Positions 19,331-45,260 are shown, counted from the stretch's first letter. The stretch is 64,000 bases of DNA from Cyanophora paradoxa CCMP329 (GCA_004431415.1 QPMI01000046.1:62001-126000), one strand, 5' to 3'. Numbers and translations are program-made. The notes: generated by a model not told the origin, from the letters alone.

Positions 19331-22300
19331 CCGGTAACCCTGCGCCCGACCCCGTCGGGTTGTAGGGCGTCTTCCCCAGGCCGCCGAGGTCCCGCGAGCG
19401 GACGCCGGCGCCCTCGCCGGTGCCCGTGCCCGTGCCAGTGCCCGTGTAGGGCTCGTACGGGGTCGTCGCCTTGCCCTTCGGGAAGATGCTGGGCACGCGG
19501 AGGGTGCCCTTCACGATCGCCGCGGTGAGGCCAGCGACGAGAAGACCGGCGGCGCCGATGCCGAACGCGAGCGGCAGGATGTGCGACATCTGCGACAGGA
19601 CCACGTTACAAATAAAATCAATCCTGTGAATACGAGCGCATGGGGCACCTGGTTGCTGTTGCCCTGGCCACGATCACCATCTTGCGGCGGGAGCTCGCTA
19701 ATGCCAGCGGCGAATGCCGGCTGGCCTGCCGAGAAGTAGTTCGGGATAATTTGGCCAAGGGTGAACTGCGCGATGATATTAGAGACAGTTTGCATTTCGA
19801 CATTGACGCAGGATGGGGCTTCAGACTTGCCGTGGTCTGCGCACAAAATGAATTAAATAAAAAACAGCGCGTCCGCATGTGCGAATGGCAGACGACGCAC
19901 CAAATGCGTGCAGAATCCACGAGCATACCAGATACCCTACGTTGAAGTGGAACGTGCTCATGAGAAGGCGTCTCATTTTGCATTCAATAAAAAATGTTGC
20001 ACATTACGCTGGAAGAGATCTCCGGCATTTGTCGCCATAGGGTCGGGGTTCTCCGCATCGCCGAGCTAAAGCGATCGCGATTAGGCATCGGATCTTCAAT
20101 CACTTGATAGAGGTGCCAACGGTCACGCACCCACATGTTGATCTTCGGCTTGTAACGCGTCTGGCACGGCTCCCAGCTACTGGAGGTCTCGTTCCAGAAG
20201 ATGAGGAACTGTTGCTCCGTTGGCATCGTTGTTTGAGTGATGGGGTACGGGATTTCGATGATGATCGGCTTGGAGTCCGCGAGGCCGTCAATGCGGAAGC
20301 CGAGCACCTGATCATGAGCGCGAAAATCTGTCAGCCGTCCGTCTGGAAGACACTCTGAACTGAAACGTTTGAAGTGCACCGAAATGTCGACGAAGCCGCC
20401 CGTGATCTTGACTGCACCCGCAACTGTGCCTCCAGAGGGACCCCTCCAAACGGGCGGGAAGGGCGAGACCTCCATGTTGAGAATGGAAACGCCGAATCTG
20501 GCTTCCAAGTAAGGCAGGGGCTGATGAGAACACTTGAGAAAAAGGAGAGGAGAGATTGGATTTAGATTCGGTAACATATCCGTAAGAAAGAAATATCTGA
20601 TACGGGTTATCGGCCGACTTGGCGAACCCGTCTTGGCCACCGTCCTTGGGTACAAAGTCGCGAACTTCGAAAGGCAGCTTGACCAGGGCGGGGTTCACGC
20701 CCTCTCCGCCGGCTTTAGTGGGGATGTCGTAGTAGACTCTGCCAGGAATTGCGATTGCGGGCGATCAAAAAATGCGCCGGGCGATCTCGAGCAAAAGAAA
20801 TGAAAAAAGCAATTGCAGACTGCACCTGATGTCAGTAAAGCAAACTGCGCGAAAAGCCAGATTGCAATTGTTATTTTATGCGCGATTGTTATGGAGGAAG
20901 CATAACGCACTTTTTCCGGCAGTCTATCGAGTCCAAGCATTGAGAGTAGTCAATGTCAGCCACGTTTACGGCAGAAGGAGAAGCAGCCATGCGATATCTC
21001 ACCACAGCTGCCGCTTCAGCAGCGGCATTACGCAGACCATCCTCACAACCGCGGCAGCTACGCAAGAGGGATTTTTAGGATTAGGAAGACACCAACTGCA
21101 GCTGCACAAAGCCGTACTTGGCGAGGGCGCCCTGGGGCGCCTTGATGAGGGTGTTGAGCAGGTTCGCGAGTGGGCTGCTTGACGACTCCGTCTGCCCGGT
21201 GAGGCCCGTGCCAGCGGTGCCGACCCAGTCCGGGCTCGCGATGGCCGCAGAGAGCTCTTCCGTGGTCTGATTGTGGGATTTAGCAACATCTCGCATTTAG
21301 ATTTCCAATTGCAAGGGTGATTTGAAAGCTAGGCGTTTGTATAATCAGATGATTGCGCTCCGCTTTCAGGAGGGGCACCTGCTCGAGGTAGACACTGAGG
21401 TCGAGCTCCAGGAAATCGCACGGGTCGAACGCCGGCTTGCAAGATGTGAGCTTTTGCAGCAGCGTCGAGTTGAGGAACCTGTAGCCAGTGAGCACAAAGC
21501 TACAGCGCCTGCGTTGCGCAGAGCTGGATGACAATGAGGCGCATGCGCACGAGCTCGAGACGGAGGCGAGTTTGGTGATGGCTGCCAGCGTGGCTGCCAG
21601 CTCCGGGTACGCGGTCGCGATGTCTCCGGTGGAGCTAGCGAGATTCTTGAGGCGATCAGCAGCGCTGGAGGCTGAGCACGCATCCGTGATCAGCTTATCC
21701 AAGCAAGGCGGCGGTCCTGCGTTCAGACATCAGGCACCGCGCGCGGTCGTCCCCGGCAGAACTCGTTTATAATTTGATACCTTTGCCGCGGAAGAACTCG
21801 CTCAGCGCGGCGATCGCGTCGCCCTCCAAGATCGTCTTCTCCTTCTCGGTGATCGTGCCCGCGGCGAAGCGCTCGCTGATCGAAGCCATGGTAGCGTCGT
21901 ACGTGGCGCACGCAACCGGAGGGTCGACGACCGTGATGGTGAGAGGGACGTCTGTTGTGCAAGATCGTCCACATGAGCGATAGACAAAGCATCGACTGAA
22001 GGTTCGGCACCGGAGCAGCCGCAGGCGTTGTTGGAGCAGATGGTCGCCGTGAGCTCGTGCGTGCCGACGGGGAAGACGTAGGCGGGGGTCATTACGTTGC
22101 TCTCCCCGGGCTTCACGAGGACCGCCTCCTTCAGCTGCGACAGGATCAGAGGATCGCCCGTTCCGCTTCGTAGACTTTCGCACCTTGAGCGAGTAGGAGA
22201 GCGGGAGCGCCGTCGCCGCATTGAAGGGCGGCTTCCAGTTCGAGCACGTGACGGTGAAGCTTGTGCTCATGAACGTACCCTGTGTTGGCGAGACAGTGCA

Positions 22301-25300
22301 TGTTCCCGGATCGACCGATGCAGGGGGACCGATGATTCGAATCGTGGCCTGATCGGAGACCGCGGGCAGAGTAGTTCCCGGATGGTTGGGGTCGGCGGCC
22401 GTCGCGGAGCAGCGCTGCAGAAAAGAAAGAAGAGCCCCTGTTAAAGACGATTTCGAGCAGTTTAATTGCCATTAAAAGTAAATCACTGACAATGACGTAT
22501 TCCTTATCTGCCGAAGAGAGTTGCGAAAAGGGTGCAAGGCGTCAGCAGCTCAAAGACAAGGTTCAAACAGCGACCGCAATCGTGGCTCACTGTACTCGAG
22601 GGCCGGGCGACTCTCCCGAGTGAAAATCAGGGAGTCGTCGACCTTTGACACAGCCTTGAAGTACCTGCGACATGTACGTGTAAAACTCGCGAACGCTCAT
22701 GCTCTTAAGATCACACTGAGGTGTCTTAACGGTGCCCGCAAAAAGCAACTAGGTCGGGCCTAGCTCCGACTGTACACAAGAATGCGCCAATTGCGATTGC
22801 GGGTTGCGCGCACGGGGAGAGGTCCGCCAGCACCGACTCGCCGTTCGGCGCGGACCAGGTCTGGACCGCGACGGTGGGGTAGGCGTCGTAGTTGGTGGCC
22901 GAGGACGTGCAGCGGGCCACGATGGTCTGGTTGACGCATACGCCGTCGGCGGCCCCAGGGGGCGGCGAGATCTCGACCTGGGTGAGTGCACAGCCCCGTC
23001 AGCTTGTTCGAAACAGCATCTATGCATTTTTTCTCTCCCGACGTATATATGCAATATTTAATACCGCACCTGGACCTTGACTTGCAGAGCGGGCACCGAG
23101 CCCGGGAGAGGGGAGGTAGTTGAGCCAGTAGGAGTTGGAGTGGGGACCCCTCCAGGCGTAACCCCTCCTCCTCCCGTATCCCCTCCGGGCGGTGGCGTAA
23201 CCCCTCCCGTATCCCCTCCGGGCGGTGGCGTAACCCCTCCTCCCGTATCCCCTCCGGGCGGTGGCGTAACCCCTCCCGTATCCCCTCCGGGTGGTGGTGT
23301 TGCCGCTGGCGTTGGTGTTGCCGGTAGGGCTCCTCCAGCAGGGCAGCTGACCACAAGAAAGTCCCTGCTGCTCTCGCGAAAACCGCCTACAGACATGTGC
23401 ATACGTAGTCATGTAAGAAAGCGACCGTCATTTGAGGGGTTTTAATTCGCAGTTCACCGCACCGAAACGATTTTTTGCACGGAAAAGCACGCGGTGCACA
23501 CGACCTGCTACGCAGTGTCTAGCCAGCCGAGTGGTAGTGACTGGGCCACCAAATGGCGCTGCAAGAGTGTTGAGGTTGAAGCTTGTCGCATCGCGGGAGA
23601 TATTTTTAATAATGTTGACGACGATCTCGTGATCGAGGGCGGCGTCCAAGTCCTTGTACTCCGGTTTCAGCGGATCTTTGGTGGTTGCCAGCGGCGTTTG
23701 TTTCAAATCTCGCAGCTGAGAGCAACGCTTAATGGCACGGTAGTGCATTTGAGTTGACTGACGCAAGCTAACCCTGACAATGAGCATGTCATAGCCGTGA
23801 GGCGTGTGGCGACCGTCGGTCGGATTCTCCCACTCAACAATGTAGTCGCTGCCGATGGGCTTCGGCTTCGGAGCTGCAAGCGAATGCATATGCATGGCTC
23901 ACATCAGAATGATTGACGCTCAGAGGTTTTTGCGAATGGCGTACCAGTCCAGCCTTCGAAGTCCGTCCACGCCGTCGCGTTGTTCTTGGAAAAGACGTAC
24001 GCGAATTGCACGCTGAAGCCATCTCTTGGGACGAGTGTCGCACCGTGCCGGTTTTTCCAGTCGAACCAGAGCTCAATCATGCTGATATCGTCCGCCTTGT
24101 CGCCCACATTCTGCTTTGTAGGGGGAGTTGCAATTGGGTCTACCATAACGTGATCCTTGTTGCGAGGGCTTCGGCCTGTCCCCGCCTTTGCAAGTGCCAG
24201 ACTGTGCTCCTCGCCGACAAGTCTGCAAGTATCCATGGGCGTACTCAAGCTTCGTCAAGAGTCTAGAATCTAGATCTAGAACGCACGCAATGTAGCAACG
24301 ATCTGCAAATAAAAGCGAGACTCAAGATTATATATCGAGGGCTACCAGAAAAGTTAGCTCACCAAGAATAAAGCCGCCAGCGCCCACGGCGGCAATGGTG
24401 TCGGTACCAGTCCCGCTAGGATGCTGAGATCCGGGCTGCCTCAAAATTTCGTTCTTGGTTGCTGTAGAGATTAGTGTGAGACCGTCGAATGTGCACGCTT
24501 TTCATTGCCATCGCGAGCAGTCATGATCAGCTGCAGCTCACCAAAATACTCTGCGTGCAAATCTCGTTAAAACATGATAAGTGGATGCCAATCAGTAAGT
24601 AGTGAAACGCACCCCCGTAGGTGTATGCTCCACCTCCCACGTATCCGGAGCTGTCCTCCGCCCACTTATTCACATCCCATTGCTGCCTATAAATACCGAT
24701 ACATCACTATTCTGCCATCGCACACAAGGACGGCAGATCTAGAGTATACCTCGAAGGACCCCAGTGCACGTAACTCTTGGAAAGACGATCGAGCCCCGCA
24801 GTATCCAGTGCTTTGGCGGCTGGCTCGTCTAATCCTGCCAGCGTCCCTGTAACGCTGCATGAGCAATTGAAGGGAATGACCGTTTGAAAACCGCTCGCCA
24901 AGTTGCTGATCGTTGTCGGGGTCGAGTCCACGCAAGTAATACTTGATGAATCTCTGGTACTGGAAGTCGTCGTCGCGCCCTACAAAATCGTGCTGGATGG
25001 TGACATCGATGTAGATCTGGAAGTGCTCATCGGTCTCGTGGAAGAAGTACCTGCACACGAGTCAGACGGCCATCATTTCACACTTGCACAGTGACACTCA
25101 AGCTAACGTTGTGGTGACGTTGATTCCTTCTCTCTTGCCGGCCGCATGCACGACCGTTATCCCATCGGGCTCCTTGATGGTTTTGATAATCTTCCCGGAC
25201 ATAGTACGCCTAGAGTCACTGGGCAGATTATCCGATTCCTGCAGACGCCGAACGGAGTCATGAACAAACCACGCCAATATCGATATATCGCCATTTGAAA

Positions 25301-28300
25301 TCGCACCATTAACGATCCGTAGCCAGTATGCTTGAGTTGTTCAAACCCAAATTGCACGGTTGTCATTCCGAGGCCCCAGCCTTCAACCTGATATAGACGG
25401 TCGAATCACTCTATAGAAAAAAATCTAGTCCATAGACGTTGTTGAACCGCAATGACGCACAGGGAATCCTTGGGTCTGCGGACAGCACGTGCACGTTTCA
25501 GACCAGGCGGATAAATGCAGTCTAAACAACCACGAATACGCACAATCAAGTCCTGGCGATGTGCGATTGAAGAATTCACGAACGGCTGTTAGTGAGCGCA
25601 CATTTGCAGAGAGATAGAGATCTAGAGATCGCGCGCACTCCGCAGTAGGGCATTTGTCTGAGTCGAATGACATCGAATCAGCTTAGATAATCGCGATCGT
25701 GAAAACAATGCGGGCTCACCGGCCTGTCTTGCAACCTGTGCCCTTCGAACAATCAGCCTCGTTGGCAATGTAGTCGTCGGACTCTGCTCGCAGGAGGATT
25801 GTGAGCCCAGAACTACATAGTGAGGCGCTAATAGAAGAAAGCGGAGAGGCAGCTGCAGCGTTGCGTACGAGGCCATGTGTTCCACTGACGAGCGCACACG
25901 TGCACGCGCATGGTTTCATGTGAATAAGGCGTTCGAATAGCTCAGGGCGCCGGCGGGTGAGACTTACCCCATCTCGATCCACGTCGACAAACAAGCCGAA
26001 CCCCGTGTATCGGTTCTGACTGTACCCGAAGGGCAGAGTTGGGCTGACGTTTGGGGCGTATTGCGCGCTGCCAATTGAGCCATCATATCCGTGAATCGCT
26101 GCCATTAAGTGCTTTCCGAAGACAAAGTAATCATTTAGATCTTGCGCGAAGCTGGTCGCTGCTCGCGCTGTTTGGATTCCAGCGTAGGTTGTTTTTACAA
26201 CGGTGCTGCGAATGCCTACGGAAGGCCCAACGAGATCCCAGCTGTGAAACGAGTTCGGCCAGGGGGGGGTACAGGGGGGGTACAGGGGGGGAGGGGCGGC
26301 CCGCGGGGGCCAGGGGCGCTGGGCCCTCGCGCCCCGGATCACGATGCCGCCGGCCGGGGCGGCGGCGGCGGGCGGCGGCGGCGCCGAGATCTTCCCCCTG
26401 CGCGGCGGGCCCGCGACGCTCCTCGGCGCCCTCGCGCTCGCCCTCAACCCGGGGCTCGGCGTCGGCGCCCTCTTCGGCATCCGCATGGACCCGTCGCAGT
26501 ACGCCGAGGTCGAGGTCGAGCCCGGCGCCATCCCGCTCGAGGCGTGCATCGCGGCCACCTCGGGCCTCGACGAGGTGGCCCCCATCTGCGTCTCCGACGA
26601 CGGGCGCTACCTGGTGGTCTGCTCGGACTGCGGCGACGTCGTGACCGTCTGCCGCGCGGAGGTGGTCGGGGACGTGGATATGTGGGCGGCGGCGCCGCCG
26701 CGCGTCGTGTACCGCCGCGTGGGGACCCTCAAGTTCTACATCGGCAACGAGGTCTTCGCCGGCGCCGCCGACGCGTTCCGCTCCTTCCGGTGCTGGGTCG
26801 TCGAGGAGCGCCGCGAGATCTACTTCGCCTGGAACAGGGAGAACGTGCGGATGTACAGGCTCCCGGGGCTGCTTGCGGCCGGTTAGGTAGTGGTCATGTA
26901 TCAATCAAAAACCACGCCGCGGTCGCGCCGGTAGCCCCCCGCTTTTCCGCTCCCACCGCCGCTGCTTGCGGGCCGCGGCGGCCCAGGCGATCGCCCCGGA
27001 GCCGAGCGCGAGGGCGACCATGGGGACCCAGGGGAGGGCCCCGCCCCCGGCGCGGAGGGCCCGCAGGTAGGTCGAGACCGGCGGCGGCCAGGCACTGGAG
27101 GAGGATGCGCTCGGGCGCCGAGTCGGCGTCGGAGGCGGAGGCGGAGGCGGAGCTCATGGGGGGGGGGGGGCGCGAGGTGCGACGTGAGATGTAGTAGGGG
27201 GAAAAATATCTCCTCCTCGATGAAAACGATGGCAGTTCCGCTCCCGACCCAGTTAGAGGGGGGGCTCCGGGCGCTCCTCGCCGCGCCCCCCCAAGAGTAC
27301 ACCCGGGCCTTCCAGTCCTTCATTCAGCTGCCTGGGTTCGCGGAGAACCAAGCCCTGATCCTGCGCCGCCTTGACAGGGAGGTCCGCAGCGCCAGAAACG
27401 ATGCCAAGAGATACGCAACAGAAGTCATCATCGGCCTGTTGAAGTCCGAAGAATACCGCAATCGGGCCGTAGTCGAGCGCACCGTCGAAGAGTTCATTAA
27501 GTCTGTAGCTTTCGGCGGGCCGCCCGAGCTGCTTCGGATTGCAGAGGGCCAGGATCCACTCGCGGGGTATGCGAGGATCACATTTGGAAGGCCCGGCTTT
27601 CTGCACGACAACAACTTCCACGGGGCGTTAGTGGCAAGTGCCGTGACATTCGCCCGCGTGCACCGGGTGCGCACCGACATCACATGGTCGCCGTGGGCAG
27701 TCGGTTGAATCCAGCTGACGAGCGGCTTATTATTTTTTTTCAATGCAGTAGTAACAGCAGAGACTACTATGGGGGCGATCTTTGGGACGCCCGGTGGCGA
27801 GCTGTTGGGCCTACTACACGAAAGGATACGCCCAAGGGAGAATGCAAGTCAGCTCCAACGGAAGTTTTTGAAGCCGGTTGAGCAGGCGGACCGGTACGAA
27901 CGGGGAGAACTCGTGCAAGACGATGATGCCCCCGATCGAATTGCAGCTTTCTGGAGAGGGTACGAGAAGGCTACCAACAGGCCCGTGCATGGGCGCATTG
28001 CCCTTCTAGCGGATAATCTCAATGCGGGTTTCGGCCTCCTTCAGGGGTTTGCAGACGCCGGGGACCAGGCATCGACCTGGACCGTCTTTAGAAATGGTGA
28101 ATTTGTCGAGGCGGTGTTCTTCGACCACCCGACGGCAGTTCCAACACCCCCCGCGGGGTACATGGACTGGCTGTGGGCGAAATCTGGGCACCGGCGCCGG
28201 CGCCGCAGCGCCTATTTTGACGACGACGACGACGACGGTGACGACCAGTCGAGAGAGCTGTTATTCAATATCCTGATCGGGAACATCGACGCGCTTGGGC

Positions 28301-31300
28301 GCTTGTTCCCAGTCGGCTCCGTTTCCGGCTTGCCCGAGATGTTGGGACGAGAAACCAACGAGGCCCTGGCCTTCATCGCCTGGATCCACCAGCCTGGTAA
28401 TGGGATTCGGCGTTGAGTGACCTGGCTTTCCTCAGCTGGAATGAACATTGACGGGGCGCCTTTTGTCGACCGGCGGAACTACGCCCGGTCGCGGCGGCCC
28501 CCGCCGCCGATAATGGCATTGGCCGGGTGTCTCTTCGTGTTAACTAGCGACGCAGCAGAGCTAGCTAGCAGGCTAGTAGCAGCGCTCGAGCTCAGGGCTA
28601 GCTGATCGCACGGGCTCCGAATCCAGGTCCCATAGGGCCCTAAAGGCTATAGCTAGCATGCCGGCCCGTCGCCGCACGCTGTACGTAGCATGCCTGGCTC
28701 TAGAGCCTCTTGCTAGCCCCGCCGCCCCCGGTACTGGCCGTCACCAAGGTGCTCGCAGCCCCCTTGCCAACAACGACTGTCACAGGTGGCAAATTGCCTG
28801 CCTCTGCATACTGGGAGGGCGTCAGCGGGGCGGGGCGGGGCGTCGGCGGGGCGGGGGCGGGGCGGGGCGGGGCGGGGGCGGGGCGGGCTAGAGCTAGCGG
28901 GGGCGGGGCGGGGCGGGCTAGAGCTAGCGGGGGCGGGCGGGGCGGGGCGTCGGCGGGGCGGGGCGGGGCGGGGCGGGCGGGGGCGGGGCGGGCTAGAGCT
29001 AGCGGGGCGGGGCGGGGCGGGCTAGAGCTAGCGGGGCGGGGCGGGGCGGGCTAGAGCTAGCGGGGGCGGGGCAGGGCGGGGCGAGACTATAGCTAGCGGG
29101 GGCGGGGCGGGGCGGGCTAGAGCTAGCGGGGGCGGGGCGGGCGGGGCGAGACTATAGCTAGCGGGGCGGGGCGGGCGGGGCGAGACTATAGCTAGCGGGG
29201 CGGGCGGGGCGGGGCGAGACTATAGCTAGCGGGGGCGGGGCGGGGCGGGCTAGAGCTAGCGGGGCGGGGCGGGCGAGACTATAGCTAGCGGGGGCGGGGC
29301 GGGGCGGGCTAGAGCTAGCGGGGGCGGGGCGGGGCGAGACTATAGCTAGCGGGGGCGGGGCGGGGCGGGCTAGAGCTAGCGGGGGCGGGGCGGGGCGAGA
29401 CTATAGCTAGCGGGGGCGGGGCGGGGCGGGCTAGAGCTAGCGGGGGCGGGGCGGGGCGAGACTATAGCTAGCGGGGGCGGGGCGGGGCGAGACTATAGCT
29501 AGCGGGGGCGGGGCGGGGCGGGGCGAGACTATAGCTAGCGGGGGCGGGGCGGGGCGGGCTAGAGCTAGCGGGGCGGGGCGGGGCGGGGCGCACTTCAGGC
29601 AGCAGGTTCCAGTAGCGAGTGGCGACCGAGCAGAAGTTGACGAGATCATCGAGGTTTAATAACTTGACAATGCGCAGGACGGCATCATCCGGCAACTGTG
29701 GCGCGTGAGAAGAAGAGATACTGTGCGCAAAGAAGAACGCACATCATCCATACACGGCGCATGCTGTGACCGCGAGAGGCGAGGGGTCAGAGAGGCAGGC
29801 AAGCGCGCGCCGCATGCCGCAAGCTGCTTCCGCACCATCTCGCCGGCCTCCGCCTGCGGCACGGCCGCACCGCCGGCGGCAGAACCGCTCTGAGGCCGGG
29901 AGCATCAGGGGAGGGAGAAGCGCGCGCAGAACGATGTTTGCGCACCCTCTGCTGCTCGTTCGTGTGCATCGCGGCCGCCGGCTCGCGCCCGGGCTGCAGC
30001 GGCGAACCGTCGTCATCGCCGGGAGGCTTCCTGGCCTGCACACGCTTCGAGCGCCTCGGCTCGAAGCCGGTATCCTCCTCCTTCTCCTCCCAGCGCCGCC
30101 GCTTCTCCGGCGGCATGATGCTGGTGCACGCGAGGGGTACAGGGATGCGCGCGCATCGACGTACCCCCGGCGACCGACTGACTCGCCGGCGGTGCAGCGA
30201 GCGCCCCCGATCTGGACAGCGGCCCGCGGTGCGAACGATGGCGAGTGCTTCCGTGCGCCAAACGTGCGCGCTGCAGATGACGAAACGGCGACGGAGCCCG
30301 AGCCGAGACGACGGCAGCACCGCCGCCATCGACTTGTTCACGGTGCGCGGCTGCCGATAGATAACCACGCGCCGAGGCCTCAGCCGGTGCCCCGCAGCCC
30401 CTGCCGCGCGACATCTTCTTCCGCATCGTGGCATTCTGTGCGAGCCCGCTCTACACGCTCTTCTGTGTGCTGGCCAGGGCGTGCAGAACGTTCCGAGATG
30501 CCGTGAGCGCTCAGCCAGCGGCGCCCGGGGCCCGCCCGCGCGCGCCGCGCGCGCTCATGCGACGACGCAGGCTCGGGCCTTCAGGGCGCCCCGCGTGATC
30601 TTCCGCGTCGAGTGCATGAAGTACCACCTGCCGTTCTCCGGCGATGTCGACATCCGCGTCGGCACCTTCCGCCAGGTGGGCGCGCCGCGCCCGCAGTGCG
30701 ACCCAGCTAGCTCATGGGGGCGCACAGGCCGTCGATGTTCTCCTCGGCCGCGTGCACATGTCGGCCGCCAGGTTTAAGAAGAAGAGGAGGACCGCGATGA
30801 AGCTCATCGTCTTCAAGCGCGACGTGGTCGAAGGCGACCCGGATCCACGCCGCTACGAGGCGAGAGGCCCCGCCCGACCCGCCCCCGCCAAGCCCGCCCC
30901 GCCCTGAGCGCCCGGCGGGCGCCAGGCTGTCAGCGCATACCTGCTCGAGGGCACCTTCACGGAGGTGACGGAGGTGGTCTTTTCCCTCGACCGCGTGGAG
31001 GGCGTCCTCGCCCACCTGCCCCGGTTCCTCCTCGCGAGGCGGCCCGGGTCGATCGAGATCCGCTTGACGCGCGAGGGCTTCACCGGCCGCGGCAGGCCCG
31101 CGGCCTTCGCCCTCGTTGAGTACCTCATTCGAGCCGCCGCCGCAAGCCGGGGGCCTGCGGCGCTCAACTTCAGCGTCAGCACGTGGGACTACACGACCGG
31201 CAGCCTCCCGCCGTTCATCGCCGCCGCGCAGGAGGACGACTACTTCATCGTGAACACCGGCCTCACCGGGCACAGCATCCCGTCCAACGCCATCAACAGG

Positions 31301-34300
31301 GTGCGCTCGGGCGGGCGGGCCCCGCGGGCGGGCCGCTAAGCTCGCTGCCGCAGCTCGGTTTCAGCATCGACGGCCCTGCGCGCCCACCGGCCCCGCCGCC
31401 TCCTCCTCCTCGACTGCGCCTCGCCCGTCGCGCCGCCCGCCCTTGCCGCCCTCGGCGCCAAGCACGTGTACTCCCCCCCCTCCGACGACTCCTCGTAGCC
31501 CGGCGCCCGCCCCCCGTTCCCCTCCCCCCGCAGCTTGGACCGAAGCTTGAGCCGACTTTCGATCTCACAGCACGACGAAGGGGTAGGGGAGGGGGGAGAG
31601 GCTGAGGGGCACCGAGACCTCCCGGCACTTGTACAGGATGAGCTGGCGGGGCGGGCGAGCGGCCATCGCAGCGAAGAGCTCGAACAGCGGCTCGGCGAGG
31701 CGCCCCATGTGCGCCCTGCGGCGGCGCGGGCGTGTGAGCAGCGGGCGGGCGGGCGGGCGGGCGGGCGGGCGGCGCAGCGCGGCTCGCCCGGCGACATAGA
31801 CGATGAGGGGGTGCGGGCACTCGAGGACGATGCGGCTGGCCGTGCGGATGATCAGGGGGGCTTCGGGCGCTGCAGTACGTGGCGCCCTGGGGGGCCACCC
31901 CGACGCAGCCCACCAGGGGCGTCTCCTTCCCCACGACGCACCAGCCCGGCTCGCACAGGCCCGTCTTGGTGCACTCCCAGCGCCTCACCCCCGTGGCGTT
32001 GGCGCACTGGATCTTCATCTCTCCCGGCTTGCAGCCGTTGAGGCAGAAGTCCCTCCTCGGCGTGCAGCGCGTCTCGTCGGCGCACCCCGTGATGGCGTAC
32101 TCGTCGGGGAGGCACCCGTTGTTGCAGCGGCGCAGGGGGCCCGCGCACGTGGTCTCGTCCGTGCACCCGCTGATGGGCCACTTCCCCGGCTCGCAGCGGT
32201 TGCCGCACAGCTTGTCGGCGCTGCAGACGGTCTCGTCCACGCACCCCTCGATCGGGGCCGTCCCCGGCTCGCACCCGCTGAAACACTCGCCCTTCCTGCT
32301 GCAGCGCGTCCCGTCGAGGCAGTCCTTCATCTCCACCTCGCCGGGCAGGCACTCGTTCTCGCACACCCCCGGCACCTCCGAGCACACCGTCCCGTCGAGG
32401 CAGCCGTCGATGGGGAAGAGGTGCGGGGGGCACCCGTCGAACCGCGAGCACTGGGTCGGGCAGCGCGGGTCCGCCATGTTGGGCGCGGCGGCGGGGCACC
32501 CGTTGCGGCAGATGTTCGGGTCGGCGCCGGCCGTCACGCACTCGCCGGCGGGGCTCGCCGGCGTCCGGCAGTTGTTGCGGACCGGGGCCGACGCGGGGCA
32601 CCCGTTGAGGCACACGTCGAGCCGGGGGCCTTCCGGCACGCACTCGCCGCACTGGTTCTTGATCGGGCGGTCGGTGGGGCAGCCGTTCCGGCACCCCCCC
32701 AGGGCGGTGGAGCCCGTGGGGACGCACTCGCCGCGGGGGTTGGCCGCCGTGACGCACCCGTTCCGCACGAAGTCGCGCGGGCAGCCCGTCGCCGCGCACG
32801 TCCCCTGCTCGAAGGAGCCCGCGGGGACGCACTCCTCGCAGTCGTCCTGCTCCTCCCCGGGGGGGCACGGCGTGCCGGACGCCTCTACCGACGCCGAGCT
32901 TGCGAAGAAGGACGCAACTCGCATTCTGAACAAGGCGATGTGGACGTCGCCAGACTCGGTCACCGTATCCACTGATACGACCTGGTTTGCTACCCTATAA
33001 TTCGGCATCAGCACCTTGTCGTGATCGGGCGGCAAGGAGTAGATCTCGAGGCGGATGCGGGCGAGCCGCCCTGCCGAGACGTCTGCAGGGGCGATGGGCC
33101 AGCCCTTGTAGTAATTCGAATTCGACGTCTCGTTGTATTTGACGAGCACGCTATTCTGCACGGTGGAGGTCTGCCCGCCACGGGAGTGAGTCAGGCTCCC
33201 CCCCCAGAGTGGAAACGGCTGGGAATCTTGAGTCGTCTTCAGAGACTCGAACCCCGCCCAATTCCAAGCATCGTTGATCGAGACCAGCATGCGGATCGCG
33301 CCGAGGGCGTCCGACACGTCCCTGTCGAGCATGCACCAGATGGAGACACGAACGACACGGTACTCGCTGAAGTAGTTGTGCGGGATAAGGAGGCTGCTCG
33401 CGTTGGGGGCCAGGTCACCCGCAGCAAGGAGGCGCTCGCCGACGGAGGGGCCGACGACGGGGCCCCGGACGATAAGACCCCCGTCGAGGAAGAGGTCGCC
33501 GTTGTTGGAGAAAGCGGCCTTGCCCCCCGCAAACGTCAGGGCAGTCGACGAGGGGATCCGCAGCCGCGCGTGGTGGCCGAACACGCCGCCTCCCACAAGC
33601 ACATTGAGGTCGGGCGAGTAGGCGGCGGCGCTGAAGTTGATTGGAGCCTCCATCTCGGTCCAGCTGATACCATCCGTGGGGCGCCAGTCCTCGGGGTCGA
33701 GCGCGAAGGAGTAGACGTAGATCGGGCGCTTGGGCACGGTGGTGTGGTGCTCCGACGCCCGGGGAGGGACCGCAATCACCCTGCAGGCCGCCCCCGCGGA
33801 CCCAGCGCTCCGGGACGACGGGTGGCCGGTCTCATACGCGGACGTCCGGGGCGGCCGCCTCGTGCGCATCGAGCTCGAGATCTACACTGTGCCCCCTTCG
33901 CACGCAGACACCGCCCTGGTTGGCATCCTTGTCGATACCCACAGCGTTGGACCCGACGAGGTCCCCTGTCACACCACCGGCCAGCTGGCCCTGTCCGCCT
34001 CTGCCACCCTCCTCCACGGGCTCCGCATCCAACCCTCGGCTGGGCGCAGGTTCCTTTCAGGCTCGTACTGCGTTTTGGGGCCATTGCCCGCCTGTTCCCG
34101 GGGACGGCGGGGGGCGTGCCGGACGCTTCAACTGATGCCGAGCTCGCGAGGAAGGATGCAACGCGGATCATGAACAAGGCGATGTGGACGTCGGCAAGCA
34201 GGTCGGGGCGGCTGCAGCCGGTTATTCAGCACGAATGGGGGACATGGATGAGGGCGAAATCAACACGCACATTCTCGGGAATGACATGGGCCGGTCCACC

Positions 34301-37300
34301 GCTTAATTGCTACTTTGCAGTGACGGCGAGGGGCGATGATGTTGAAGACGAATACTCAATCGCATCTGACATGTTCGTCCTGGGCAGCCGTGATGGAGGG
34401 CATTCGTGGGAGCCCACGGTTGAAGCCCGGCAAGGATGGGATGACAGCGATTTTAACCCAGAAGGATTCAGATGCATCGTTGCATCGGGAGATGGCCATG
34501 TCTTCGCCTTGAGTCATCCCACGAATTCCTACTGGGGATCCCAGCACCATGTCAAAATCATCGAGACTGTTGATGGGTCCACATGGTCGGTTGTCTCAAA
34601 CGTGACATGCTCGAGCAATGACGGTAATTATTATGAATCTTCCTATGCCATTTACAGGGTTCTCATCTATGTGCCCGAGCTGAAGGCAACTTTCTACTTT
34701 GACGACTACAATGCGTACAGGCGGTCTGATGGGGGGGAATGGGAGGGCGGGTCCCTCGTGGATGGTGTCGACGTAATTCGCTGGTGGGGTGCAACATCCA
34801 TCTTCTACTCCCCAGTGCTAAAGAAGCTCGTCGCCCTGTGTTCGTGGTTCGTACGCACGGAAAACCGCGGCCGGCTTGTGACGGGGCCGCCGGCTGGCAG
34901 GACTCGCCGGGGGCGGCGGCGGCCTGGGCGGAGTGCCCCCAGTGCCCCCGCGGCGTCTACAACTGCTGCCCCCCGCGCCCGCCCCAGCGCCTCGTCATCG
35001 AGCCGTGAGGGCGGGGCCTCTACCGCCGGGCCGCCGCGGCGGCGGCCGCCGCCGGGCGCTTCGGCGCCCCCCTCCGGCTCGCCGCCCGCTTGGCCCTCTT
35101 CGCCTGCTCCAGCTCCCGCACGCCCTCTAGTGTGTACTCGCTCAACCGGGCCCTCTGAAGAATCCTTTCCATAGCCTGCGTCGCCGCCCGCTGGGCCCTG
35201 AGCGCGGACCACTCGGGGTGCAGGCTGCGGACTCGCAGGTACTGCGCCAGGTACAGGTGCTGCAGGGCCGACTCGCTGAGGGCGCGGGGCCGCCGCGCGG
35301 GGGGGCGCTGGTAGGTCATGGCTGTTTATTTGCTGCGAGAAAAAACGGCGCCCTGCTCTAGTAAATTATCAGGACCAGGCCGTCGCCTCCGGTCCGCACG
35401 TTGTAAACCGTGGACCCCTTCCCGCACGGGGAGACGTAGTCCGGGTCTGTGGCGTTGCCGGGGGTGTCATATGAGGCGGCGGATGTCGTACCACCGGTCA
35501 CGACCGCGCTGCCGTAGTAGCTGGAGCCCCCGCCGCCGCCGTAGTAACCGCCACCGCCGCCGTAGTAGCCGCCGCCGCCACCGCCGCCGTCTGCCCCCGC
35601 GATGTCCCCTCCCGTGTACTTCGAGCCGGCTGTGCCGTTTGCCCCGGCGTCACCGCCTGCGGCCTGGGTGCCGCCGCCGCCCCCGGTTTTGGACATAATT
35701 ACTTGGATACCCGTCAGGCCGCCGCCGCCGCCGCCTCTCTGGAAGTAACCCCCGCATGCCCCACCGCCCGCCGTGATGATGTCGTCGGTGCCTCCCTGGA
35801 CCCGGATGGCGGACCGCCCGCCCCCGCTCCCGACGTTCGTCTGGGACGCCGTGCACCGCCCGCCCCCGCCGTAGGTCGCGAGGTGCGCGTTCGGGTTGGG
35901 CCTGCCGCCCTGCCCCACGATGATCACGTAGGTCGCCCCCGGCGTTATCAGCGGCTTCCACTGCTCAACGTCGCGCTGTCGCCGCTGCTCCTCCTCCTGC
36001 TGATGCTCCTGCTGCTGCATCGCGACGACGACGACGATGCGCGCGCGAGTCAGTTCGTTGTTGCGCTACCCCCCCCCACTCCCCCCCCCCTCCTGCATCA
36101 GTGTCGTCGTCAGCCGGCCAACCGGCAGCCGCACCGGGCGCAGACGCCGTGGTGTATGAGACATCCGACGAAGCCGGGCTACAGGATCGTCTTCAGCAGC
36201 ATCAGCAGCGGCGGCAGCATGCCGAGCGAAGTCGACGCTGAGGTGGTCAGGTTGGGACTGGTGCGCGCGATTCATCTGCCTGAATCCGCCATCCGCCTGA
36301 TGATGCACGCGCGCCGGCCCGCAGCCCCGTGCGGGGCGCCGACGGCAGCGTCGGGGGCGCGGCCGGGCGCGGCCCGGTCCGGATCCAGCGCCGCCTCGGG
36401 GCGGGTGCGACGACGGCCGCCGGGGAGGGTCGATCGGCGGTGATGGGGCCGTCGGCCGGCGGGCGCCACGGGCACCGGCGGCGGGGCGGGGCGGCGGGCG
36501 GGGCCGGGGCGGGCGGGGCGGGCGGCGATGACGGTCGTGATGTCGGCGGCGGGGAGGTGGGCGCCGGGGCGCCGGGTGCCGGGGGGCGGGGGCCGGGGCG
36601 GGCGGGACGGGGGCCGAGGGGCGGGCGGCGGGGACGGGCGGGGACGGGCGGGCGGGGGCCGGGCGGACGGGACGGGGGCCGAGGGGCGGGCGGCGGGGAC
36701 GGGGCGGGGACGGGCGGGCGGGGCCGGGGCGGACGGGACGGGGGCCGAGGGGCGGGCGGCGGGACGGGCGGGGGCGGGGGACGGGGCCGGGGCGGCGGGC
36801 GCCGGCTGCTGGGTTAGCGCCGGGCCGGCCGCGGGCCGGTGCCGGAGCGGCGGCCGGGCGGGCGCCGGGGCGGGAGCCGGGTCGAGGGCGGGGGTGGGGC
36901 CGGGGGCGCCGGGGTCCGGACCGACCTTGAGGCGGAGTTTCAAGTGGTTGGAGGCGGGGTCGGCGGCGGCAGGCGGGCCGGCGGGAGGCGACGGAGAGCG
37001 CGGGCGCTTTGCCGGGGGCGGCGCCGACAAGTTGAGGTTCCTGAAGATTTCCTCACGAAGGCGGCCCCGGCACGCTGTGCAGGAGGGGCTGCTGCCCCCG
37101 TCGAACCGGGAGCGCATCATCGCGCACCCCGTGACGTATTGGTCGATCATGTCCAGCATCGACTTGAACTGACCGGAGCAGTGCGCGTGCACGTGCTTTC
37201 CGCAGCGCACCCCCTTGCACCTGAGCATGAGGAGCACCAAGGAGGCGATGATGAACTGCGCCTCCCTCCGGTACCTGCTGGTGAACGTGGGCTCGCGGAT

Positions 37301-39123
37301 CTCCAACATCGCCCTGGAGCATGCGGCGGCCGAGGCGGCCGCGGGGCCGCAGGCGGCGGCCCCGTGGTGGGCGGCGGTCGCGGCGGCCCAGGCGCAGGGG
37401 GTCGCGGCGGGCGTGCCCCGCCTGCGGCGTGCACTGGGTCCAGGCGGCGTCCGACTCGTGCCTCGCCTGCCGCCTCGGCCGCGATGCGGCCCCGCGCTTC
37501 GGCGACCCGGGGCGGCACGCCGAGGAGGCTGCTGCCGTCGGGGATGCCCTCGCGGCCTCCGCCTGGCGCCCCGTCTCCCCCGACATCGTCTTTGCGGCGC
37601 GCGGCTCCTGTGCCCCCGGGAAAGGCGCCCTCTACCTCCCCGATTTCGTCTTCTCCCTCCCGCACGCTATCTTCTGCCTCGACATCCTCACCAACTGCCA
37701 CCGCGACGAGCCCCCCAGCTTCCGCGAGATGCGCGAGGACACCTACCAGAGCCTCACCACAATGGAGCGCCCCGTCGTCTTCCTGTACACCAACTTCGGC
37801 TCCTACTTGACCGCCGGCGCCCGCCTGCGACGTCAGGAGGACCCTCCCGGCACACGCTCTCTGCCATTTCGACCCCCCCCTATGCACTCGCCCGCCGCGC
37901 CGCTGAGAGGAAGCCTCAGCATCAATTACCCCCACATCTTCGTTCGTCAGCTGGAGGAGTCGGGCCTCCTCGCGGCCCTGCGCGCCCGCCCGCCCCGCCG
38001 CATCGTCATCGGAAGCTTCAAATCCTCCGCCGCGGCCGCGGCCGCCGCCTTCCCCAGCCTCCTCGCTCTCGGTGCCGAGGTTCAGCTAGCCGAGGTTGAG
38101 CTAGATTAGAGCCTTCTCCATTCATTCACGGCACATAAACAGCCCCTGTAAAGAAGGGATACCAGCGGGCGAGGACCCGGGCCCACCACGCGTGGGTCTC
38201 CGCCTCGGGCTCCTCCACGAGCGGCATGATGAATGCGGCAAGGGCGGGGGGCGGCGCAGGGTAGATCCCGTCCACGAGCGGAGCGCTGGGGGCCGGCCGA
38301 GTCGGAGAGCCTCTTCGGCGCCGTGCGGGCCAGCAGGCAGCAGTAGTTTAATGCCGTGTGATATCAAAACCAATCGCGTCACCTGCACCTCCCACTTTTT
38401 CCCAGCCAATATTATCCATGACCGCAACGGCCGCTGGGCGGGGCGTTTAAGTCGACCTGCGCCTACGGCACTTGCGGCTCTGGACGGCGGCCTTCTCCAT
38501 AATCGCTTCCTCGGCCGGCTCGAGTGCGCTCATCAGCTCCCTCTCGCGCCGCTCCTCCTTGATCTGGACGTGGGTCCTGCGCCGCTTCTTCTCGGGCGTG
38601 GGGGCGCGGGGGTCCTGGTCCTCGCACTCGGGGCGGGCGTTCGGGCGGTCGCAGTAGTAGCTGACGACGACGGGCCCGGCGCCGGCACTGCGGCGTTTGG
38701 CCTGGAGTTTGGCGGCGTCCATGCGGGCGAGGAGGCGGAGGGGAGTCAGGACGCGGGCGGGGTTGGGGCGGCAGCGGCCGCGGCGGCCGCGGCGACGGCG
38801 GCGGCCTCGAAGGCCGGCCCTGGCGCGGCGGCCCCGGCAGCCCCGGCAGCCCCGGCAGCCCGGCAGCTCCGGCCCCAGCCCCGGCCCGGCAGCAGTTGTG
38901 GGTGGCCCGATCCTGCAGCTGTGGCAGCAGGCCGCGGCGCCCGCTTCCACAACCATTGAGATCCTGCGACAAGCAGCCGTCGTTGGGCGGGCACGACAGC
39001 GTCCGTCAGCGAGGTCCAGCGTGGCTTGGCGGCGAGCCTGGCCGTCTCGATGTACATCGCCATGTCGGAGTCCTACCAGCTGCTGCTTGCGGGCGGGGCC
39101 ACGCCGCAGCTGGAGGAGCAGGA

Positions 39124-39165
<42 letters not shown>

Positions 39166-42100
39166 ACCGACGGGCAGCGCGGCTGCGGGCGCGGTCCCGC
39201 AGCCGGGGGAGGAGGCGGCGTCGGTGGCACCCCCCCGGCCGCGCGCCACGGAGTGCGTCAAATGCCGGGAGCGCCTCCCCGCGGTGGCCCTGGTCCCGTG
39301 CCGCCACGTCCCCGTCTGTGTCGAGTGCTGGGGCCCGCACGTGGCCGGGCGCACCTTCAGCGACGAGGGGGCGGGCATCGCCTGCCCCCACCCCGGCTGC
39401 GGCCTCCGCGTCGACGGCGCGCTTGTCGTGGTCCTGCCTTAGGCAGCTGCAGCGCGTGGTGTGTGTGTGTGTGTGTATTTAATTTTCCACTACAACACGG
39501 CGCTAGCTAGAAGCATCGATATCCGCTCTTCTTCGGCCGTGGCCCGCTCGAACTCCTGGCGCTCTTCCGCTGCCCTCGGCCCGTCATCGTCGTCGACTGT
39601 ACCGGAACCAAGGAGGCGGTGCAGGCGGTCGATGCTCACGGGTTTGTGGGGTAGGCCGTAGAGCAGGTGCCTGATGATGAACTGGCGCTCCTCAAGGAGG
39701 CGCTGAATGCGGGCGGGCGGCCGGCTGGAGTGTATCGCTTCCACCGCCCGCGGGCTCAGGAGGGTGGCGGAAGGGTGGCGCCACCCGACGTCCAGGGCGG
39801 ACCACCACGCCCCCGGGTTCGCCCGAATGAGGCTCGCGATGAGGGGCGTGCCCCACCTTTTCCGGCCGCCGAGCCGGGGGAGCCCGGGGGGGGGCCGGGG
39901 GGGGCCGCAGGGGGCCCGCCGGGGGGCCGGGGAGCCCGGGGGGGGGCCGTGAGGCCCGCCGGGGCCCGGGGAGCCCGGGGGGGGCCATGGGGCCCGCCGG
40001 GGGGCGACTGGTTCAGCCCCGCTGTGAAGGTCGACGGGTTGCGCACCGAGTAGCCTTTCGCAGTGCCAGGCTCCTTGGGCTGAATGGCTGCACAGGGAAT
40101 TAGGCAGGAGACTTTCTGAAGATTCCGTTGTGATTCACCTAGGTGTCCTCGGATCTGTTGTAATTCGCGAATCTGTCAGCTCGCGAATTCTAATAATAAA
40201 AAAACTAAGCTTCAAGTTCCAAGGCACCTCGAAAAGAGGCATGAACTGCTGGTGCTGGTGCTCTAGACAGTACCTGCAGCATCCCGCTCAGTCCTGGATC
40301 CAAAAACGCGACGAACACTCAAACGGACAAAGTCGTCTGCCAAGTAGGGCTTTCGTCCCATAGGCCGAAGCGCGTGTTGGCAGTTGGATCGAAAGGAGTG
40401 CCCGGTTTAGATGTCGAAGCGGTGGCCGGATACGCTCGAAGATTGTACTGGAGCTCCCTAGGCTTTTGTAAGGTATCATAACGGAGCGGACAAAGCAAGA
40501 GCTGACCCGGCGATGTGCCCTAGCCACCTTGGGAACGCCGAACCACCCGCCTTCACGTTCGGATAAAAAACAGAACTTGAATCGGGTAGAGTACGGCCTG
40601 GATGGCAAGGCTCGACACGCCGAAAACAGAAACATGCATCTACTCGACACTAGATGCGTACCAGTCTCTGATTTAAAAATCGGGTAGTTCGCGGCAGTGG
40701 AATGCCGCTCCCTGCATCGAAAATCGAATGCATTAATTCTCGTTGGTAGAGAAAAGAGTTTCGTGTAGCAAGCCTACGGACCCGAACCACTTGCTGAAGC
40801 CGAGTGCGAAATCTGCCACAATTGCAATGCGATATTGATGGGAAAACACAAAGCCAGGACAGAGAAGACGCACTATCCAATCCAGGGGCCGCGACCTTGT
40901 TCCAGCTCGGATCGTACGTTGTTGCGAGCTGCGATATAACTCAGAGTGCGCCATGCTTTTCGATTACGGTCGAAAACTGTGCGCACTGAAAACAAGCCTG
41001 TTGTAGAAGAAGAAGAACGCAAAGATGTCAAAGATGGCTTTCAAAAAAAGCGGGACAGAGGACAGAGGTGAAACACGGGACAGAGGTGAGCTCACCGTCT
41101 GTGACATCCGTACGCCGAATCCTGCACATGGTTTAAGTAGAGCTCTGTGCAGATCGCAAGCTTTTCGTACCTCAGGCACCACTGGAGTGCAGAATTCGAA
41201 GTCGCGTCGGCGTGGGTTATCACCGAGAAAACCAAGAGAGGAAAGGCACGCACTGCATCGTACACGAGAATTGGTTGATCGCATTCGACGTACACGTCAA
41301 GGGTTTTGCTTGTAGGGTCTGAATTGCGCATGCTGTGTCAAAATTCGAGAATTCGCGTGCTGGTGCAAGTTTGAAAGACAAGGGACCGACCTCGTTTGGT
41401 ACCATCTACGATCACATTTTGTTTGCAAATGCCGAAAAGCGGAAAATCCTTCGGGCGAGTCTTTCGCGGGCATGTGCATTAATTCCAATGCCGTGCTCGA
41501 CTGATTTGAAGGAAATGTGCATGTACGTGTACCTTATAAACACCGCTAACTTTCGTCGGCAGCTGGAAGGCCACCCCCACCTTCTCCTGTGCTTTGCACT
41601 CTTTCGCATACGCTGTCGTAACCGTCGTGGCGCAAGGCCAACCCTTTCCGCTGTCGCCACGATTCGATTTTACAATGGCAACCTGCAAAACCCGTACTTG
41701 GTCGAGAGACAGGCACGATCGCGAGAGCAAAGTTCATATATATATATATATATATATATCATCATGGGCACCCGAAATTCGAGGTTGGTAGGAATCGTGT
41801 CATTAAACCCTCCGGCTGTTTTGAATCCACTCTTTGTATCCGGAAAGAAAAGTCTGAAGACCTTCATTTCGATTTTGAAACAAGTGTGCATGTACATGTC
41901 TTAGCAACGCACGTGAAGTAGACAGAAGTGATGTTGATTGGCGCATTCATGTACCGCATACTGCGCGAAGATTTGAATAAATAGTATTGGCAAATAGGCT
42001 TCTAATTAAGCATGTCATTTTAGGCTTCCGAAAGCACAATTGTAAATTTACTTACCAGTAGAAGAAATCATCTGCAAGACGTCGAAGAGCAACGATTATG

Positions 42101-42849: not shown

Positions 42850-44924
42850 GGACGTGCGAGACCTCCGCCGATCAAGCCGCGCGCACTCCAACGCACGCGG
42901 GCCTGCAGCCAGCTACAGCTGCCCTAAGCCTGCTCAGCAGCTGCAGCTGCAGCTGATGCAGCTGATGTCGATATAAGGGGAGCGAACGCCCACGAGTTGC
43001 AGGGACCGTCGCACGGGCCAGTCTAGGCTAGGGCCGCTAGGCTACCCGACGACCTCTTACCGCACTACGGTAGTACCGTAGAGTCGGCGTAGACCCGTAG
43101 TACTGTACGTTCAACGGTTCTCGACTCTGAGAGACTCTGAGATCTGCAGGCCGCCTGACTCTAGAGGCTGCAGCTGAGGCCGTACCGCCGGCCCGCCGCG
43201 GCCGCCGGGCTTCTACTAGGCTAGCTTCTATCTTCGTACGCCGTGACGGTAGACTATCTACTAGTACTACGCCGTGTGACGGTACTACCGTTACAGTACC
43301 GTAATATAAGATGTCTAGACTCTAGAGTGTCTAGAGACTGTGGCCGGTAATTCACCAAAAAACATATTTCGGCAAAACCTGAAAAATGTGCCAAGATTGT
43401 GGTTCGTCGCCGAGTCGGCATCATATTTTCGGCAACACATGTACAGCCAGTCCGCCTAGGCGGCGGGTACGTTGATCCCTCTTCTGCCATACATCTGCAC
43501 AATTCTGGCACAATTTATAATTACAGCCGCTGAGCAATTACTAGTACAGTAGTAGTACTCAGTGATTGGTCATAGTCTGGTACCGGTATAGCTGGCCGAG
43601 GCTGCTGGACGAATGGGCTGCTCCCAATGTAACCAATCCCGGAGTCCGTGCTTTTTCGCGCGTCCGACGGTCTGATCATGATTATCACTGAGTATTGGTG
43701 CGATCATCGGATTCGGTCAATTTCGGTGGAATCGGTGCACGTGACCGCGCGCCGCGTACGGGCGGCGGCGTACCGTGCATGACTCAGTGACGGACCGGGA
43801 CCTCGGTGACTCGGCGTCGAGTCGGCGACGAGTACTAGTCGGCGACTCGGCGTGTGCAGCTGCAGCCTGCAGCCTGCAGCTGCAGGCTGCAGCCTGCAGG
43901 GCCATGTCACCGGCCCATGTGCACGTGCAGGCTGCAGCCTGCAGCTGGCCATGGCCATGGCTGCCGCAGTGCAGCCTGCGCTGGCAGCGCTTCTAGATCT
44001 CCGAGGCTCAGGGGGCTGACAGGGGCCCGGCTTCAAAAAAGCTTCGGGGCAACTTAAGCTTGGCAAGTTCGGGCCCGCGCCGCCGCGCGCGCGCGACTCC
44101 GGATCCCCGGGCCGCGAGGGCTGCCAGCATTATGGCAGCATAGCGCGTGGCGGGCGCAGCGCTAGCTATATAGCAGCCTGCGGCCGCGCGCAGCTACTAG
44201 CTCCGTATATACGCGGCCCGCGAGCGCCCGGCCTCGCCGCGGCCGAGTCGTTCCCTCGAGCTCGCGCTCGCGGCCCCGCCCCTCGCGATCGTCCGCGCGC
44301 CGTGCGAGGAATCGCCGAGGACACGGACGTGATCCTGAGCTCGATCACTCGCGCGATTGCAGCGCGCGCGGACGCAGCTGCAGCCTCAATCGCGAGAGGT
44401 CCATCGGCCGTCGCTGTGCCACGTCCGATGCCTCGCGGCGCACGATTGCAGTTGGCAAAGAGCTCGAGCGGGTGCATGCGGCTTTGCGGCGCCGACGGCG
44501 ACGCCGAGCGCAGCGGCTCGCCGCCTCTGGCCGAGGACGCGTGGCCGCGGGGCGCGGCGCTGGAGGCGGAGCGGGCGGCGCTGCTGCAGCGAGTGCGCGG
44601 GGCCCGGGGCGCTGCAACAGGGGAAGCCCGTCCTTTGGAAGAAGACTTCGCTTGCCCTCGCCGCCGACGACGTCCTCAAGCGCGGCGGCCTCCTTGACAA
44701 GCTTCTCAAGCTCGAAGCCGTAAGCGGCCCGCCCCGCTCCTAGCTCCCGTACCTTCCTCCCCTTCCCTCCCGCTCTTAGCACACCCCCCCCCCCCCCCCC
44801 CCCTCCCCCCCACACACACCTCGGGCCGCCCTCCCGCGGCCGCCCCGTCCCGCCCCGGCCGCCCCGCTACCTCCCTCCCCTCGAGCTCCACCCTCCCTCC
44901 CTCCCTCCCCCCTCTTCTCCCCCC

Positions 44925-45260
44925 CCTCCTAGGCCGCCCCTACCCCTAGGCCGACCCCTACCCTAGGCCGCCCCTATAGCTACCCTAGACCGCCCCTACG
45001 TCGCCCCCTACCCCTAGGCCGCCCCCTACCCCTAGGCCGCCCCCTAGGCCGCCCCCTACCGGTAGGGGTAGGGGGCGGCCTAGGGGTAGGGTAGGGGGCG
45101 GCCTAGGGGTAGCTATAGGGGCCGGCCTAGGGGGCGGCCTAGGGGTAGGGGTCGGCCTAGGGGTAGGGGGCGACCTAGGGGGCGGCCTAGGGGTTATTAA
45201 AGGGGCCGACCTAGGGGTAGGCCTACCCCTAGGCCGCCCCCTACCCTTAGGCCTACCCCA
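44925..45260. repeat. Imperfect palindrome built from CCTAGGCCGCCCCTACC units, centred near 45060
   Basis: C-rich units to the left and G-rich reverse complements to the right of cccctaccggtagggg. Confidence 0.9.

Follow-up and report, generated by a model that had tools for sequence, protein, structure and literature searches.

Within a 64,000-nucleotide window of the genome of the glaucophyte Cyanophora paradoxa CCMP329 (GCA_004431415.1 QPMI01000046.1:62001-126000), an exon of a host gene is interrupted by a 13.7-kb block in which host-like gene pieces and pieces derived from giant viruses are scrambled. The analysis of this window leads to the conclusion that the interval 26262-40004 is a genuine single DNA insertion with precise bounds, which spans 13,743 bp including the G-runs at its two junctions (G8 on the left and G6 on the right). 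Host sequence extends to 26261 (...GGCCA) and begins again at 40005 (CGACTG). The peptide of the minus-strand exon reads ...TFTAGLNQS(P) up to 40005 and continues as WPNSFHSWDL... from 26261, so that both the coordinates and the peptides are as a first-pass annotation of this DNA had given them. We tentatively favor the reading that the insertion is a non-autonomous element that came in by crossover at a G core, in the manner of phaeovirus insertions or Cryptons.

The two halves of the exon both lie on the minus strand, at 40005-40087 for the 5' half and at 25968-26261 for the 3' half. Joining them with three G's gives an exon of 380 bp that is bounded by an acceptor at 40087 and a donor after 25968, both canonical. 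The first-pass annotation had proposed that retention of three or six G's would restore the reading frame, and this is correct, but 0, 9 or 12 G's restore it as well (5 of the 14 values tried in all). Since several G counts keep the frame, the target is not fixed by the frame alone. The GC content changes at each junction, from 0.55 to 0.85 on the left and from 0.93 to 0.62 on the right in 100-bp bins, and amounts to 0.71 for the element compared with 0.55 and 0.52 for its flanks.

Short-read contigs and the paralogous empty site

Short-read contigs were mapped over 24000-28700 for two DNA runs and over the right-end region from 39.5 kb for one run. The mapped runs are possibly not independent of the source of the window itself, and the mapping tables were filtered, the listed pieces being a part of the total (281 and 234 further pieces). 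Between 99 and 100% of the words of 24000-28700 were present in 18 of the 24 runs listed. The left junction is bridged by contigs in both DNA runs, by a record at 26206-28700 in X1 and by a record at 26222-26299 in X11, the latter covering the left terminal array with 0 differences. A single unbranched contig spans 26206-28700 at a depth of 102, compared with 118 for the host contig, from which we infer that this part of the element is single-copy and fixed. The concern of the first-pass annotation that the junctions might be products of misassembly is thus allayed at the left end, whereas at the right end no bridging record was present among the 8 of 242 pieces listed for one run. In that run 39480-39860 is without any contig cover, possibly as an effect of the filter.

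An 8306-bp contig of run X1, which has the same length, depth and strand in both mappings, represents a paralogue of the host gene. Its positions 3815-3868 match window 25000-25053 and its positions 5291-5339 match window 40226-40274. The two matches are 1,423 bp apart on the contig, and the window is longer by 13,750 bp, compared with an expected 13,737-13,743 bp. This difference in spacing indicates that the exon halves are contiguous in a paralogue, as the first-pass annotation had presupposed for a homologue. A second paralogue contig matches 26206-26263, that is, through the first two G's, which favors a three-base target.

Additional contigs and depth signals were recorded near the termini. 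A 7351-bp contig of run X1 aligns over the right junction at 39989-40042 with 7 differences in 54 letters, and may stem from a host paralogue that has a stretch of C-rich codons, or from a related end located at the paralogous site. Depth is in excess at the left end (about 200-300 above the listed records) and at 39872-39927 (2,200-4,800), in both cases from unlisted, mostly short records, and could reflect G-rich noise or host paralogues. Over the host exons at 24000-26197 there was no coverage in two runs guessed to be RNA, which counts as no evidence.

The interrupted host gene, located at window 19700-26261 and 40005-42100 on the minus strand, is large and multi-exon, with GT-AG introns and several paralogues; several of these match the 5' half of the interrupted exon. 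The host protein has no family match, and the interrupted exon found 0 relatives among 148 candidate proteins of 180-2000 aa. The GC content of the host gene, 52-55%, is low for the C. paradoxa genome, for which 67.6% GC and many introns have been described (PMC6704402). Giant-virus insertions (10.1101/2025.04.15.648976) and polinton-like viruses (PLVs; PMC12220804) are known from C. paradoxa.

Terminal arrays and the origin of the insertion

The ends of the element look dedicated rather than accidental. The left terminal array (26262-26291, plus strand) reads G8-TACA-G7-TACA-G7, an 11-bp unit in 2.6 copies, and the right terminal array (39877-40004, plus strand) consists of three G-run units of 52, 39 and 37 bp, which are able to form small hairpins and the last of which ends in the junction G6. 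The 11-bp left units and the G-run junctions described in the first-pass annotation are therefore present, but the right units are not uniformly about 40 bp and the first G-run on the left is eight bases long. Nowhere else on the plus strand of the 64-kb window are runs of at least six G's clustered as densely as at these two ends; in GC-rich parts away from the termini, a pair of such runs follows within 60 bp at 30 of 1,955 GGG sites and precedes within 60 bp at 33. A motif, GGCCCGC(C)G4-6CC, is common to both ends. It has three matches in the 64 kb, on the same strand and each within 100 bp of a terminus, where 0.12 would be expected per 13.7 kb. One match (26298-26311, plus strand, a single copy in direct orientation) is located 36 bp in from the left end, and the right units contain the other two. 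The terminal reading frames at both ends point inward.

No terminal inverted repeat (TIR) was found: when the terminal 300 bp were aligned in inverted orientation, the highest score was 26, a value reached by 163 of 200 shuffles. A target-site duplication (TSD) is likewise absent, apart from the G's themselves. The earlier statement that the element lacks TIRs is thus borne out, and its target is not of the Helitron type. An Rfam scan gave 4 weak matches, all far below the gathering score and none above chance. The left array had 0 matches in JGI metagenome contigs, and the joined-end (right plus left) motif had 0 matches in viral contigs. The sole viral-contig stretch with the left-array motif, in the AT-rich phage-like contig L001 (G001, 33,236 bp), was judged unrelated; positions 1-100 of this contig hold the same 11-bp G-run repeat followed by CCTTTA repeats, its other end lies in the same motif, and it is probably broken at a repeat array.

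In the model that we favor, the element would enter the host exon as a circle whose joined ends cross over once with the host G-run, in a reaction catalyzed by a tyrosine recombinase that is encoded elsewhere and acts in trans. The host target would be CCA-GGG-CGA, as suggested by the paralogue contig that matches through the first two G's. Joining of the right end to the left end would generate a donor site with a G-run core, and the terminal arrays may serve as binding sites for the enzyme. The donor itself may descend, in reduced and non-autonomous form, from an element that is related to giant viruses and shuffles gene pieces. A clean insertion with the G core as the only shared sequence, without a TIR and with repeats in direct orientation, is what circle crossover by a tyrosine recombinase leaves. 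A non-autonomous element is favored because of the piece of giant-virus capsid in the cargo and because of the precedents of phaeovirus insertions and Cryptons.

Phaeovirus insertions arise by recombination at a CC dinucleotide found at both junctions, and one of their ends carries imperfect direct repeats (PMC13236599). The first-pass annotation had proposed a possibly undescribed family of large elements that integrates via a G-run core; a crossover of this sort, at a 2-base C/G core and with direct repeats at one end, is already known from the phaeovirus insertions, which gives the proposed mechanism a close parallel. The endogenous viral elements of phaeoviruses in Ectocarpus resemble the C. 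paradoxa element in their link to Nucleocytoviricota, precise insertion, tiny C/G core at both junctions, lack of a TIR pair, direct repeats at an end and introns in element genes (PMC13236599). The counterpart of their core is present here, with G-runs at both junctions, one GGG that restores the frame and a contiguous paralogue. In contrast, they measure about 350-400 kb compared with 13.7 kb here, no tyrosine recombinase was found here, and the core gene set of Nucleocytoviricota is absent except for a capsid fragment of 36 aa. Long G-run array ends, a glaucophyte host and scrambled cargo further set the C. paradoxa element apart.

Cryptons lack TIRs, carry direct repeats of 4-6 bp, and are similar to the element in their short direct homology at both ends, their non-autonomous derivatives and the circle model proposed for them; the repeats are sequences such as TATGG, whereas a homopolymer core with tandem arrays is present here (PMC3212892). 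The element also differs from Cryptons in the lack of a tyrosine recombinase gene, in its length of 13.7 kb and in its approximately 15 gene pieces. Starships are likewise large, cargo-carrying and TIR-less, but are fungal elements with recombinase-type insertion and a captain DUF3435 recombinase at the 5' end. The first open reading frame (ORF) of the C. paradoxa element encodes a 180-aa orphan (ORF1) rather than a captain.

Several observations weigh against integration by crossover at the G core. No tyrosine recombinase, HUH, DDE, reverse transcriptase or ATPase gene was found inside the element by Pfam (39 frames in the element or near it), PHROGs and NCBIfam (19 frames each) or motif scans, in agreement with the first-pass annotation, which had seen no mobilase there. 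The tyrosine recombinase motif scan gave one low-complexity match, the four HUH-like triplets were in no family context, and no element frame has a Walker A motif. None of these genes was found in 25 further frames of the window either, except for a host AAA ATPase. Among the glaucophyte PLVs of one survey, 85 of 156 carry an rve integrase and 0 of 156 a tyrosine recombinase (PMC12220804 Table S6), which indicates that these PLVs are not the source in trans and that another source is needed. Published phaeovirus sites have an AT-rich inverted repeat around the core, and none is present in the terminal 300 bp of the element ends. The direct similarity of the two ends overall is not above that of shuffles (49 of 200 reach it), and the motif common to the ends was chosen after inspection, with at least three matches in 3 of 100 window shuffles. 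Two contigs with paralogues of ORF1 continue beyond the position that corresponds to the left end, by about 0.9 and 2.4 kb, yet a left-array match is not listed for them at 85%, a threshold that changes in G-run length may defeat; this weakens the case for a family of elements sharing these ends. Coverage depth reaches only 77-130 across the 39-bp right units, and no second locus with the same paired ends was present among the listed contig matches. Neither an empty allele nor a circle junction of the locus was seen in the two mappings, neither of which spanned both ends.

A one-off break repair, in which a linear piece was patched into a break in the host G-run by G microhomology, is the main rival reading, though we consider it less likely. 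The donor would be a host or giant-virus-derived fragment broken at long G-run clusters, or else a small replicon that is linear and G-rich at its ends, and the 11-bp repeats could be slippage scars. Such a repair is consistent with homology that continues from the G's into the array units (CA preceding the left run and C following the right run), with an interior pieced together from fragments and inversions that meet at C-run joints, with the apparent single copy of the mapped part, with cargo paralogues that have no listed left-array match, and with the lack of a mobilase. It accounts less well for paired special ends with a motif in common, for the absence of apparent host loss if the target is GGG, and for the location of both ends in G-run clusters, which by chance would be improbable (about 1.5% x 1.7%) unless breakage prefers them; the 43 ordinary G-quadruplex-type motifs on the plus strand of the element do not single out its ends. 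A non-autonomous rolling-circle (HUH) element of the Replitron or Helitron type that gathers gene fragments is unlikely. Gene-fragment capture is typical of Helitrons, the left end of the element follows AG/GG, and the right units have their hairpins. Replitrons have short direct terminal repeats, no TIRs and insertion after a purine and G (RG), with variable TSDs possible (PMC10288648). Only the G-runs are exactly terminal here, the shared motif being 36 bp inside the left end. However, no Rep or HUH protein was found in the element. The element is also far larger than described Replitrons (0.9-3.6 kb), which were not detected in glaucophytes. Helitrons target AT or TT (PMC10288648), whereas the element has a G-run target and G-runs at both ends, and neither RepHel nor matching Helitron ends are present.

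Retrotransposition in trans by a Penelope-like or non-LTR (long terminal repeat) enzyme is improbable, slightly more so than a rolling-circle origin. The minus strand would correspond to the RNA and the left 11-bp repeats to a 3' tail from re-priming on host CAGGG, and the host end does match the repeat unit over 5 bases. Penelope-like elements keep introns and can move intron-containing host genes (PMC8557442). However, the element is 13.7 kb long with genes and likely introns on both strands, it contains no pseudo-LTR, no reverse transcriptase and no hammerhead ribozyme or other Rfam match above chance, and the right array would be left unexplained. We consider it least probable that the right junction is misassembled or misplaced, or that the element is a decayed PLV or DDE element that lost its TIRs. 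The lack of a bridging record among the listed right-end pieces and the unexplained 7351-bp contig would fit a misassembly, but the left junction is bridged in two runs and the paralogue spacing agrees with the called length within about 10 bp. The element resembles PLVs in its size, which is near the low end of 14-40 kb, in its GC shift relative to the flanks and in its fibre-like cargo (PMC12220804, PMC10120064). Unlike PLVs and Polintons, it has no TIRs or remnant of them, no 5-6-bp TSD and none of the hallmark genes by Pfam (capsid, packaging ATPase, polymerase/primase-helicase, integrase), although very divergent PLV capsids could escape Pfam.

The element belongs to none of the families tested, each of which has a defining feature that is missing here, be it the recombinase, the core viral genes, the TIRs or Rep. 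The literature searched, which excluded most subscription papers and some supplements, yielded no account of a comparable Cyanophora element; those supplements might list the locus as a repeat or viral insertion. Extending the crossover at a G core to a whole family is a further step that we regard as possible but rather unlikely: an undescribed Cyanophora family of miniature, gene-shuffling satellites derived from a giant virus, which would cross over at G-runs, attach through the tandem G-run arrays and depend on an integrating giant virus for their recombinase. They would be to eukaryotes what the integrative elements of phage satellites are to bacteria, and would carry pieces of host and viral genes from place to place in an algal genome. 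Starships and whole giant-virus insertions are already well described as large TIR-less cargo elements. Small TIR-less cargo elements of algae would escape TIR-based and capsid-based screens of protist genomes, and the exact ends together with the known empty site provide probes for a family and its enzyme. The element also bears on how pieces of giant-virus genes enter eukaryotic genomes and are reshuffled there. If the insertion were instead a one-off repair, it would be of modest interest, but would still document cleanly the knockout of a host gene by viral DNA.

Cargo genes and their relatives

The cargo comprises approximately 15 tightly packed genes or gene pieces, both host-like and virus-derived, as the first-pass annotation had described; these include F-box, RING and glycine-rich genes and a fragment of a giant-virus capsid gene. 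ORF1 (26344-26886, plus strand, 180 aa) points inward and starts 82 bp inside the left end. Among 1,273 candidate proteins it matched only itself, and 554 metagenome pattern matches yielded 0 confirmed. Two diverged DNA paralogues of ORF1, in records of 4055 and 5458 bp, are about 87% identical in patches, and one of these contigs also matches sequence at 26953 with the order kept (joints assigned by equal depth). A 162-aa orphan ORF follows at 27220-27708 (plus strand) with no family in Pfam, PHROGs or NCBIfam, and then ORF3, a 215-aa orphan (27769-28416, plus strand) with no family or relative, a fold pLDDT (predicted local distance difference test) of 36, and 58 pattern matches in viral contigs of which 0 were confirmed.

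The F-box gene (28519-29743, minus strand, with splice signals taken from the sequence) has an F-box match at E=5.5e-4, just under the Pfam cut-off. Contigs of two runs guessed to be RNA cover its 3' end (28519/28524-28700) with 0 differences. An internal array of 30/61-bp repeats, located at about 28812-29595 (approximately 780 bp) inside this gene, is likely an expanded intron. The 30/61-bp repeats are composed of the host intron 5' motif and an AGCTAG palindrome. An orphan gene at 30788-31339 (plus strand), also without a family, likely contains a host-style GC-AG intron at about 30866-30925. Host-style introns are thus likely on both strands of the element, which argues for a DNA rather than a spliced-RNA intermediate.

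The chimeric ORF P0002 (31896-33869, minus strand), which is a C. paradoxa gene model in EukProt, contains a capsid fragment, a propeller- or fibre-like stretch and Cys-rich repeats. The capsid fragment (33648-33755, minus strand) covers about 36 aa from the C-terminal part of the major capsid protein of Nucleocytoviricota, with matches to Pfam Capsid_NCLDV (E=0.006) and to MCPv1 of PDB 8h2i (E=1.3e-4); 18 of 36 residues are identical in an alignment. Compared with a capsid paralogue from a giant-virus metagenome-assembled genome it is 69% identical over 26 aa, and 3 of 12 hits are capsid proteins. A rearranged duplicate of P0002 is present in two pieces of opposite orientation, at 33820-33963 (plus strand) and 34112-34192 (minus strand). 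Farther to the right are an ORF at 34.2-34.9 kb (49 pattern matches in viral contigs, 0 confirmed), the 99-aa orphan gene model P0017 (35020-35319, minus strand) and an ALK/LTK-type glycine-rich domain protein (35358-36020, minus strand; PF12810 E=2.6e-9, three PHROG families). Toward the right end are a RING finger (C3HC4) gene (39050-39442, plus strand; PF13920 E=3.8e-6) and an orphan reading frame (39490-39870, minus strand) that points inward, with no family and no in-frame start codon inside the element.

An inversion of about 0.9 kb, which has C-runs at its break, divides a Cys-rich gene into two parts. Its N-terminal part (37414-37845, plus strand) corresponds to residues 45-190 of P0019, a paralogue on another contig, with 76% identity, and its C-terminal part (38460-38767, minus strand) corresponds to residues 190-250 at 38767-38585 with 79% identity, so that both pieces abut at residue 190 of P0019. 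The split gene may resemble giant-virus Vsr-like nucleases with altered catalytic positions, a resemblance that family, structure and fold searches left unconfirmed. The P0019 fold has a pLDDT of 36, and searches with this model had no match at E<=0.001; the DUF559 protein that came up at E 0.56 does not count as evidence. In viral contigs P0019 had 9 pattern matches, of which 0 were confirmed, and in phages it had none.

Other features of the window

Window 1-19590 (minus strand) is occupied by a very long GC-rich gene with repeats of about 1.1 kb and fibronectin type III matches, which runs off the start of the window and whose repeats grow more alike away from the N-terminus. At 44920-45260, TAGGGG-type telomere-like repeats form a large palindrome centered near 45060, with the C-rich half first. 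Split direct repeats at 47338-48155 / 52623-53926 and 51223-51346 / 54049-54178 are 3-6 kb apart and 79-91% alike. These are possibly relics of another mobile element, and the frames between them are without a family match. Finally, window 54600-63500 contains host genes of about 76% GC (C2/ankyrin/leucine-rich repeat-like by eye, and the AAA ATPase) with many GC-AG introns that begin with C-rich GCCCC repeats.

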